From Endomicrobiales bacterium (GTDB lineage Bacteria; Elusimicrobiota; Endomicrobiia; Endomicrobiales; CAWCFT01), in NCBI GenBank assembly GCA_963794945.1, contig CAWCFT010000006.1:32001-96000 (forward strand): 64,000 nucleotides of DNA, read 5' to 3'. Shown here one piece after another: positions 1 to 3,000 of the stretch. Each line of letters opens with the position of its first letter. Position 1 is the stretch's first letter. A program made the position numbers.

Positions 1-3000
1 ATGCCGCCCCTTATGAGGTTGTCCATGTAGGTGTGCCTGCAGTAGAGGTCGAACGCGCCGATGGCCGACTCTGTCGCGATGCCGTCAGTGAGGCTCTCTA
101 TCAGGAGCCTGTTCTCTTCGGCCTTATCCTCGAAATATTCCGCTTTGCCGGAAAGCTTAAAGAACTGGTTAAGCTTCTCTTCGCTGTCTATGTGGCCTAT
201 CATTGAATACAGCCTGACGTGCCCGCCGGCGGAAAGCCTGCGCCCGAAAAAGCTCATAGCTGATGGGTATTTGTTGCTTCCCATCTGGTTCTGGGGAACT
301 GCGAAACCGCCCTCGGCCATGAAAGCCTGGGGGTGCAGAAACGCCGCGTCCTGGCCGAAAACAACTTCGGGGTCGACAATGGCCGCGGCCTTGGAGAGGC
401 CATTAGGCGTTGTAACGAGGCCGAAATAGAAGTTGCCTTTGTGGACCTCTGTCACTTCTGTCTTATCGTTTATCTCTACTTTCAAACGGTAGAACGGAAC
501 ATTTTTATCGAGGTTGGTCACAAGAGTCCACGCCTGCGCCGTCGTGCTCATCTGCTTTAGAGTGTCTATGCCCATCCAGTAGGGGATGATCTTCGGCAGG
601 CCGTCTATGACCTCTATATCGGCCGGGCTTGCGCCGATGTTCTCTATCTCTAGCGTCCTTAAGAGCGCGGCTATCGGCTCGTTGGGAAGCGTGAAATACC
701 TTACCGTCGTCTTTAACCCCAGCGCCATGTTTATGTCTTCAAAAAGTATCTCGTACGGGCGGACGGACATCCTCTGCAAGGGCTCGCGGCCGCAGTTTGG
801 AGGGTTGCTGGTGAACGGCTCATAGAAAACATCGCTGTTTTTTCCTTTTATTTTTATGAACGTGCGGAAGCCCTGTGTCGCCGTAAGCCCGTAGGCGTTA
901 TTGGCGGCGTAGAATTCCATTATGGAGTAGTTCTTGTTCCTGATGCCGAACGACGCGATACCCTGGTTGCGGTTGACGTAAAACGCCCACATGGGTATGC
1001 CCTTGAGGCCCGCGACCCCCGGGAAAAAGCTCGAGAACGACTTAGCCTTGTTGTAATTCGTGATGACGAATGTCCCGTCTTCCAGCAGTTTGTAGCCGGA
1101 CTTCTCGCTGTCGTCTGCAAAGTTAGTTTTCATCGAGCTCCTCAGAATACTCTCCGGAAGATGAAAGGAACGTTCTTGAAATGCGAGTTTAAGTCGAACG
1201 TCTTCCTGATCTCACCTTCGGAAAGGTAGTTTGTTATTTCTTTGTCTGCGGCGACGGCGCTCTGTAGCGACGTGCCCAAATTGCGGGCGGCGAAAGCCGC
1301 GCGCTGTATAAGTTCGTAAGCCTTCTCCCTGGAGAGGCCCTTATCAACGAGAGCGAGCAGGAGCGCGCCGGAAAATATCACGTCCTGTGTTTTCTCGAGG
1401 TTCTTCTTCATGTTCTCGGGGTAAACCACGAGGCCCGTGAGTATTCGGTTCATCCGTTCTATCATGAAATCCAGTGCAATCGACGCATCAGGCAGAAGCA
1501 CGCGCTCGGCTGACGAATGGCTTATGTCCCTCTCGTGCCACAGCGCCACGTCTTCCATGGCGGTCACGGCGTAGCCACGCAGAAGGCGGGCAAGGCCGCA
1601 GATGTTCTCCGACATTATGGGGTTCCGCTTGTGCGGCATGGCGGACGAGCCCTTCTGACCTTTTGTGAACGGCTCTTCCGCTTCCTGCACCTCGGTGCGC
1701 TGTAGGTGGCGTATCTCGACAGCTATGCGCTCAAGCGAGCTGCCGGCTATGGCGAGGCTCGCCGCAAATGAAGCGTGCCTGTCCCTCGGGACTATCTGGG
1801 TCGAAACAGGTTCTGGTTTGAGGCCTAGCTTTTTGCAAACGTACAATTCAACCTTGGGGCTTAAGTGAGCGAACGTGCCCACCGCGCCGGAGATCTTTCC
1901 GTAGCTTACGGTCTCGCCGGCTTTTTCCAGCATCTCTTTCGCCCTTTTTATTTCTGAATACCACGAGGCAGCCTTGAGCCCGAACGTTATGGGTTCCGCG
2001 TGCACACCGTGCGTGCGGCCCATCATGGGCGTGAACTCGTATTTTTTCGCGAGAGCTTTTATCGGGATAAGGAGTCTGCTCATACCCGCCGAGAGAAGCT
2101 CGCATGACTGTTTCATCTGGACGGAAAGCGCCGTGTCCAACACGTCGGATGAGGTCATCCCTAAATGAAGGAATCGCGCCTCAGGGCCGACCGATTCCAC
2201 CACCTGCGTGAGGAAAGCTATAACATCGTGCTTTACCGTAAGTTCTATCTCGTTGATTCTCTCTATATTTATTTTCGCTTTTTTGCGTATCTTGGCAACA
2301 GCGGATTTCGGCACCGCGCCCATCTTAGACATCGCTTCGGCGGCAAGTATCTCCACTTCAAGCATCTGCTTGAACCTGTTCTCTTCCGACCAAACCTGAG
2401 ACATTTCTTGTCTCGTATAACGCGGAATCATTACAACCTCCAGAAGCTGTAAGTTATAAGCTTTAAGCTGTAAGAAAAATCAATTCACGGCTTCAGTTTC
2501 TTTTCCAATCCTGTTATCATCCTACCAATCTCTTCACATTCAGCATTAAGTCGCTCAAAATCTTTCTTCTCAATATAATTCAGATCCTTGCTTAATATTA
2601 AATGATATTTTGTTTCTTCAAGAGAAGTTTCGGCAATGTTTAGAAAATGAATAAACTCTTTAGTGCTATTTTTTTTACATCCTTCTACAATATTGGTAGG
2701 AATTGAGCTCGCAGATCGCCTGACCTGCGAGACAATACCAAACTTCTCTTCTTCGGGAAATCTCTTTGTAATTGTATAAATAGCTAACACCAAACTATGC
2801 GCTTTTTCCCAAACTTTAAGATTTTTAAATATTGCCATTTTAATATCAGATATAAGCCGTAAGTTTTAAGCTATAAGAAAAATCTAAATCTTTATGGGCT
2901 TTTATTTTTGACTTTTCTTACAGCTTATAGCTTACCGCTTAAAGCCTGCCGTTAATAATTTTAAGTATAGCTTCGGGATAAAGCTTGTGTTCTACTTCCA

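Follow-up and report, generated by a model that had tools for sequence, protein, structure and literature searches.

Inverted arms of short tandem repeats flank genes of the IVP four-helix-bundle family across bacterial phyla and recur without a gene in the operons of an Endomicrobiales genome

Genes for the IVP (S23p) four-helix-bundle protein lie between inverted arms of short tandem repeats in several bacterial phyla, and such arms also occur as gene-less pairs and as lone arms at junctions between a stop codon and a ribosome-binding site (RBS), between tRNA genes, and in tolerant loops of proteins. We read them as a family of selfish elements in which a pentameric IVP protein would bind about five units per arm and help the arms to spread. 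We infer both the binding and the movement, and we give this reading a probability of about 0.5. The window analysed here comprises 64,000 nucleotides of an Endomicrobiales genome (G000, C6:32001-96000), with its closest purB matches in Endomicrobiales/Elusimicrobiota.

The IVP cassette of the window forms part of a minus-strand pyr-pur operon (Table 1). The transcript runs from the purN stop through the A-rich arm, a loop, a first T-rich arm, the IVP gene and a second T-rich arm to the RBS and purB. All arms around the gene are built from the unit TAAGCTR, and the second unit of the A-rich arm supplies the stop codon of purN. The genome-wide survey's note had described an IVP gene between inverted TAAGCTR arms at this site, as we find at 2443-2477 and 2914-2948; it had missed the third arm at 2846-2880, and the interval it gave ended just short of the upstream arm. 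Folding of the RNA predicted that the A arm forms a hairpin with the inner T arm (z -5.6) and that it pairs with the outer T arm around the IVP ORF (z -3.97), and by this model the A arm can pair as RNA with either T arm. A search of window positions 1-30000 returned no Rfam match at E up to 1. Like an rRNA intervening sequence, the locus has inverted repeats around a sense IVP ORF and heptamers ahead of its start; it lies between purN and purB and not in a 23S or 16S rRNA helix. In this assembly purN is split over two frames (window 3240-3280) and the start of purM is seemingly shifted (4421-4483), both of which are likely assembly indels. Directly after purB, here and in several relatives, lies the start of a gene (window 3-1133) that weakly matches GH149 glucan phosphorylase.

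Table 1. IVP locus and other repeat elements in the window (positions in the 64,000-nucleotide window).
Feature	Positions	Strand	Remarks
purB	1142..2431	-	downstream host gene; profile search
Outer T-rich arm	2443..2477	-	five units; IVP stop to purB RBS
IVP / S23p four-helix-bundle gene	2485..2838	-	117 aa; same direction as purN and purB
Inner T-rich arm	2846..2880	-	five units; directly ahead of IVP start
Loop	2881..2913	.	33 nt; A arm to inner T arm
A-rich arm	2914..2948	-	five units, outer unit retains AG only; first in transcript
purN	2939..3527	-	upstream host gene; two reading frames in assembly
Lone T arm	3824..3848	-	TAAG core family; in frame within purM variable loop
Gene-less TAAGCTR pair	4499..4603	-	fills pyrE-purM junction; predicted hairpin z -4.9
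Gene-less TAAGCTR pair	5202..5291	-	fills pyrF-pyrE junction; predicted hairpin z -6.4
Gene-less TCAAAWA pair	5967..6108	-	upstream of pyrF; unit of C8 IVP gene
Lone A arm	9091..9116	-	TAAG core; pyrK-pyrD
Gene-less TAAGCTR pair	16150..16214	-	upstream of purF
Gene-less TAAGCTR pair	25640..25723	-	after dCTP deaminase gene; ends approximate
Gene-less TAAGGGG pair	28605..28686	-	after nrdR

The identity of the encoded protein is clear from profile searches (TIGR02436: 141.7 bits, cut-off 24; PF05635: 146.7 bits, cut-off 33.8), and the genome contains five PF05635 matches. The window protein also matches XCC0516, the protein of PDB entry 2GSC (E 4e-17). Its predicted fold is an all-helical four-helix bundle (pLDDT 96.9) that superimposes on 2GSC with a TM score of 0.95 and an rmsd of 0.8, and on Avd with a TM score of 0.78; the Avd profile gives 46.6 bits, under its 80-bit cut-off. 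Judged by the five chains in 2GSC and 2RLD and by PMC4990558, IVP is probably a homopentamer. Avd is a positively charged pentamer (PMC6182149), and its link to the IVP-type fold is given in PMC10053308 and PMC6182149. Eight residues (Q38, R41, S45, N49, E52, G53, S72 and E75) are 96-100% conserved among 104 relatives, and no catalytic motif is known for the family. Across the order, 6 of 67 IVP matches contain stops. Across bacteria, IVP genes run in the direction of their neighbours in 86/92 and 88/94 clear cases.

To place the cassette in its genome we scanned the spacers between gene calls from our own ORF model, and spacer totals consequently differ from those of the earlier survey. A repeat period of 7 was present in 170 of 1,761 spacers and in 2-5 spacers of each of five shuffles; in the same scan, periods 4-6 and 8-12 were found in 2-27 spacers each. 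The period-7 excess reported by the survey thus stands. Inverted pairs with at least three units per side occupy 141 of 1,654 spacers, against 0/1,654 after shuffling. The survey's 77 gene-less pairs are therefore real, the number being an undercount or the result of a stricter cut. Adding four low-scoring pairs gave a set of 145 elements, 127 of which have an A-rich first arm, in line with the survey's note. The set divides into the families TCAAAWA (48), TTAAGAT (25), TAAGCTR (23), TTACAGA (12), TAAGGGG (11) and TCAGCTR (5), with 21 elements small or unassigned; some calls in the class of 15 labelled "other" are doubtful, for example window 38121-38276. The four largest families correspond to the units of IVP genes on contigs C8, C5, C6 and C4, respectively, and the units that the survey had assigned to the genes on C4, C5 and C8 were correct; the arms of the C2 gene are weak. 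TAAGGGG has the TAAG core in common with TAAGCTR and is the unit of the IVP orthologues in G005 and G001; TCAGCTR has no cognate IVP gene in G000.

Elements favour junctions between co-oriented genes (137/145, background 1,470/1,654, p 0.026), and 73 of these 137 start within 6 nt of a stop codon. A scan for opposed arms at 2,386 genes picked out 36, including four of the five IVP genes; most of the others lie between neighbouring elements, and no transposase with arms of its own was found among the 2,386. Element density varies along the genome: contigs C9, C18 and C19 are nearly element-free (1, 0 and 0), and core operons are dense. The loop of one TCAAAWA arm pair contains an IS200-type Y1 gene (C11:110011-110460), which is present in three copies of equal score. 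A fluoride-channel-like gene (C8:92127-92594; crcB by reading of the sequence) between inward TCAAAWA arms is possibly non-IVP cargo. A common sequence of about 250 nt is nested in three loops (C2:73227, C2:74490, C17:5119), and many TCAAAWA loops contain short GC-rich palindromes. Besides the lone arm in purM, three further arms lie in frame in other G000 genes; by eye, G000, G006 and G008 all have an in-frame arm in this purM loop, each with its own unit (L353 and L354, two of 19 relatives shown).

The anatomy of the arms is highly regular. An alignment of 68 TAAG arms on their inner ends has four complete cores, followed by a fifth position at which only AG is kept (0.79, 0.76), and drops to background on both sides. 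TCAG arms follow the TAAG pattern, TCAAA and TTACA arms have four units and a partial fifth, and TTAAGAT arms have three to four units only. The cores of the inner four units are conserved at 0.93-1.00, and the tails at 0.39-0.86. In a slippage-type simple repeat, adjacent units are more alike than chance; here none of 171 adjacent TAAGCTR units is identical to its neighbour, and among middle neighbours identity occurs in 0/79 cases versus 8.4 expected, lower than in any of 5,000 permutations. Local slippage as origin of the arms is excluded because identical adjacent units are absent, an absence that could alternatively stem from deletion of identical neighbours. Arms pair with their own partner no better than with any arm of their family (+0.007, 114 elements, p 0.25). 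We found no excess of G.U pairs in G000 (G.U versus A.C 156 versus 138, 141 versus 118 in an earlier set; not significant), and cross-phylum loci have a deficit (231 versus 287). An apparent signal in the direction of elements relative to transcription was lost after composition control on the loops. Since the core is invariant and the tail free, since identical neighbours are missing and since pairing is not partner-specific, the arms look like arrays of protein sites, and neither like slippage products nor like RNA stems under selection. The unit count per arm would also fit a ring of five members.

These results bear on two alternatives in which the protein has little to do with the repeats. 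Slippage could generate heptamer runs and template switching a mirror copy, with the IVP gene incidental, or G-quadruplex formation could select for four units. Slippage has indeed been proposed for heptamers (work cited in PMC4692102 and PMC4679880), and some loci contain long perfect runs. Against this, the arms are not copies of their own partners, units, inner ends and loops are common to distant sites and tie to IVP clades, and most units lack G runs. The results on pairing, unit identity and unit ends largely refute a mutational by-product for G000, and we regard this explanation as very improbable. In a second alternative, the arms act as RNA: they pair, RNase III cuts the stem and frees the loop or the IVP mRNA, and the protein is a passenger. 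Such a device would be served by the stable predicted stems and by the RNase III gene present in G000, and the heptamer stem of Coxiella is cut by RNase III (PMC4990558). The pairing and G.U results above speak against it, however, as does the existence of lone arms, and a core and a unit count that are both fixed, as well as units specific to a clade, call for more than pairing alone. An RNA device of this kind seems to us distinctly unlikely.

Inverted arms are not confined to this genome. For a comparison across bacteria, 80 IVP loci were chosen by peptide words of the window protein and thus form a biased sample; 79 could be scored, with the 95th percentile of cross pairs as threshold. Inverted arms passed at 43/79 IVP loci, compared with 2/75 purB loci (77 of 80 control loci supplied, 75 scored) and 7/79 IVP loci in direct orientation; 36/79 IVP loci failed. 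The arm periods were 7 (60), 8 (16), 9 (9) and 6 (5). In nine genomes chosen for their published repeats, 23 of 34 further IVP loci passed. Two Xanthomonas IVP loci carry both arms, and 8 of 12 cyanobacterial IVP loci (L371, L374-L384) score at least 31 for inverted heptamer arms, which we take to belong to named STRR classes; unlike the arms described here, STRR heptamers are often expanded into long runs. The IVP gene at L548 has TCAGTTA/TAACTGA arms, the one clear locus of its kind besides a fragment (L536). A strict partner arm accompanies only 14 of 104 TAACTGA arrays, and none of 132 TAACTGA loci has an IVP gene. IVP-positive and IVP-negative samples gave 6/10 versus 1/10 genomes (p 0.057), and an IVP gene was found beside 2 of 122 pattern-picked G-rich arrays, both cases being one gene. 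Other layouts (A-T-gene-T, A-gene-A-T, A-T-gene-A-T and T-gene-A) occur at L531, L540, L542, L545 and L548. At L007, L009 and L013, IVP cassettes lie by eye between or directly after tRNA-like genes.

To relate unit and protein we compared arm profiles, parsed from 80 of 104 loci, in pairs at different sites. Common arm words occurred in 7/7 pairs above 70% protein identity (six of them from one clade), in 12% of 196 pairs at 50-60% and in less than 1% of 2,830 pairs below 50%. Overall, clade and unit correlate only slightly (rho 0.094, against a maximum of 0.098 in 500 permutations). The clade of the C5 gene keeps a TTAAGAT-like unit in three phyla. As far as sequence comparison can tell, these data support the notion that the unit follows its IVP clade to new sites.

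A second gene family has a similar layout. GxxExxY (TIGR04256) genes at C1:343730 (L194) and L385-L392 are flanked by inverted arms of units of about 9-12 nt; 6/9 loci score at least 40 for inverted arms, L390 being a coordinate artefact and L391 having been read on the wrong strand. A gene-less pair of this kind follows the C2 IVP gene. It is therefore conceivable that the arms are non-autonomous elements of the MITE or REPIN type, moved in trans by a GxxExxY nuclease or a Y1 transposase, with IVP as cargo or accessory. This would agree with the occurrence of GxxExxY genes in 7/31 genomes, all seven IVP-positive, with five Y1 matches in G000 (all away from the window IVP gene, one of the IS200 kind inside an arm pair as noted and two identical-scoring copies elsewhere), and with the role of Avd, which is an accessory and not an enzyme. 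However, 9 of 16 IVP-positive genomes have no GxxExxY match, GxxExxY genes bear longer units of their own while the arm units here track IVP clades, and 34 TAAG elements gave no sign of target duplication (at least 5 nt in 6/34, versus 13.6% of cross pairs). We consider mobilisation in trans doubtful indeed. The Y1-like gene at C1:146034, with two 30-nt palindromes at its flanks, was dropped as a RAYT candidate; its palindromes have no dispersed family (one match, one strand searched).

Comparison of close genomes revealed that junctions gain, lose or swap elements. At the 29 purB loci compared, the junction with purN is loaded with an IVP gene in G000, G003, G005 and also G001, contains a gene-less pair of a different unit in G004, and is closed in 14, where purN abuts purB; the survey's statement that orthologous sites are empty thus applies to these 14 and not to the loaded relatives or to G004. 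Within genus g17, G019 and G021 are 94-95% alike. An 8-mer arm takes the place of the last purN codons in G019, with a 14-nt spacer at this position in G018, G021 and G030; after purB stands an 8-mer pair in G019 and a 7-mer pair in G018 and G021. IVP genes in G018 and G021 are flanked by similar units, and we found no IVP match in G019 though arm pairs are present. Copying is seen within G000, where 43 bases of an arm beside the C8 IVP gene recur unchanged in a gene-less copy at a distance of 6 kb, and where two elements on different contigs have 132 of about 150 bases in common. Common units and inner ends, the 43-base identity, the clade-following unit and the turnover between congeners support the survey's view that one family of cassettes exists in loaded and in empty form.

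The gene at purN-purB itself is as old as its neighbours and conserved: it is 79% identical in protein to its G003 counterpart, with four-fold sites saturated as in purB. This counts against fast movement of the loaded form. Together with the retention of 83% of Xanthomonas sites between two species (PMC4692102), it fits a use of the arms by the host. IVP might then belong to a post-transcriptional network in which it binds arms on operon mRNAs, tunes the translational coupling, processing or decay of housekeeping operons, and autoregulates, spread being secondary or ancient. Such a network could account for the short spacers left around elements (at most 40 nt in 89/137 co-oriented elements versus 1,071/2,269 other junctions), for flanking genes that are typical native genes (0.371 versus 0.311 per codon) and for the long conservation of the ORF, and a regulatory role has been proposed for TAACTGA repeats (PMC4679880). 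It sits poorly with the patchy presence of IVP (80/251 genomes of the phylum), with several unrelated units interleaved in one operon, with the swap of families at one junction between congeners and with arms inside coding loops. Moreover, the 5' and 3' arms are equally conserved, yet only one of them reads as the unit on the transcript. We judge a host network unlikely.

Under the selfish-element reading, an element would consist of an arm of four to five tandem units of 6-9 nt together with its cognate IVP gene. The IVP homopentamer, an Avd-like ring, would bind an arm as single-stranded nucleic acid with one core (for example UAAG/TAAG) per subunit. Binding would keep each unit family matched to its own protein and promote the spread of copies, as arms or as arm pairs, to transcribed junctions not previously occupied. 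Copying would have to rely on host enzymes because no nuclease or reverse transcriptase is encoded; G000 (86% complete) has no PF00078 match. The IVP gene would be promoterless and expressed from host operons. As in the 23S intervening sequence, the hairpin would allow insertions to be tolerated without itself being the feature selected, and stop codons supplied by the A arm would add to this tolerance. More tentatively, and with rather less confidence than in the reading above, we suggest a previously unnamed class of transposase-free mobile elements for which the IVP pentamer serves both recognition and spread: the ring would read five cores on a single strand and template the writing of arms or arm pairs at translated junctions, in tRNA clusters, in rRNA helices and in loops of proteins. 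If true, this class would account for the ORFs of 23S intervening sequences and for much of the heptamer excess in bacteria (Xanthomonas, cyanobacteria, Beggiatoaceae); GxxExxY cassettes would be a parallel class, and Avd would originate from a repeat-binding ring.

Neither a function nor an origin is given in PMC4692102 or PMC4679880 for the excess of heptamers in the spacers of bacteria, and S23p/IVP has two solved structures and no function. Once each repeat family is assigned its own pentameric protein, a single binding assay can address both questions. This pairing names a candidate for the mobile protein that was postulated, with no identity given, to bind TAACTGA arrays (PMC4679880), and it points to naturally occurring pairs of ring and repeat that differ in specificity. 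Were the spread protein-driven, DNA would be moved without a known transposase.

Several known systems share parts of this anatomy. In REP/RAYT systems, a gene for a Y1 HUH transposase is flanked by inverted copies of its own site, a palindrome of 20-40 nt, and many gene-less inverted doublets are dispersed in the genome. The elements described here likewise include many gene-less inverted doublets that match the sites beside the gene; unlike in REP/RAYT, the gene encodes an all-helical bundle and no HUH transposase, and the arms are tandem and non-palindromic. The survey's term "REP/RAYT-like" is therefore apt as an analogy: the element would work like REP/RAYT without being a member. MITEs combine terminal inverted repeats, target-site duplication and a transposase gene with matching ends elsewhere, and of these features only the terminal inverted repeats are found. 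The TRAP ring on (G/U)AG repeats, with one short core per subunit and free spacer bases, has a different fold and serves as an analogy only for the putative binding by IVP. Avd of diversity-generating retroelements (DGR) resembles IVP in fold, pentameric state and a weak, sub-cut-off profile match, in a genome where no reverse transcriptase was found.

The survey's note had held that no description of these elements exists. Parts are in print separately (PMC4692102, PMC4990558, PMC4679880); in the literature within reach, which excludes subscription papers, family comments and most supplements, we found no paper that links them or that connects IVP/TIGR02436/PF05635 or GxxExxY genes to flanking repeats outside rRNA. 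In Xanthomonas, GGGAATC repeats of about four units form 70-75 inverted pairs per genome in core operons, with a purine arm after the stop and a pyrimidine arm before the start, as here (PMC4692102). They were read as G-quadruplexes without a protein partner, whereas units here mostly lack G runs; row 15 of a table in that paper lies, without comment, at the start of XCC0516, the IVP protein of 2GSC. The TAACTGA repeats of Beggiatoaceae, Cyanobacteria and Bacteroidetes stand as 2-6 units ahead of start codons within operons and were described as direct repeats (PMC4679880), unlike the inverted arms here, and their link to IVP is weaker; the terms "helix bundle", "S23" and "intervening" do not occur in the searchable text of that paper. 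The 23S intervening sequence of Coxiella and Leptospira has a similar layout, with a sense IVP ORF inside an inverted-repeat stem and tandem heptamers ahead of its start; in Coxiella the heptamer-bearing stem is the RNase III substrate and the ORF decays, and ORF-bearing intervening sequences are sporadic and have been termed selfish (PMC4990558). The present elements differ in their occurrence in mRNA and tRNA operons, in more than 140 gene-less copies and in several unit families per genome. Judged by their sequences, the Xanthomonas GGGAATC repeats, the TAACTGA repeats and the Coxiella intervening sequence appear to be one anatomy, and the element of the window is this intervening-sequence anatomy spread through mRNA operons.
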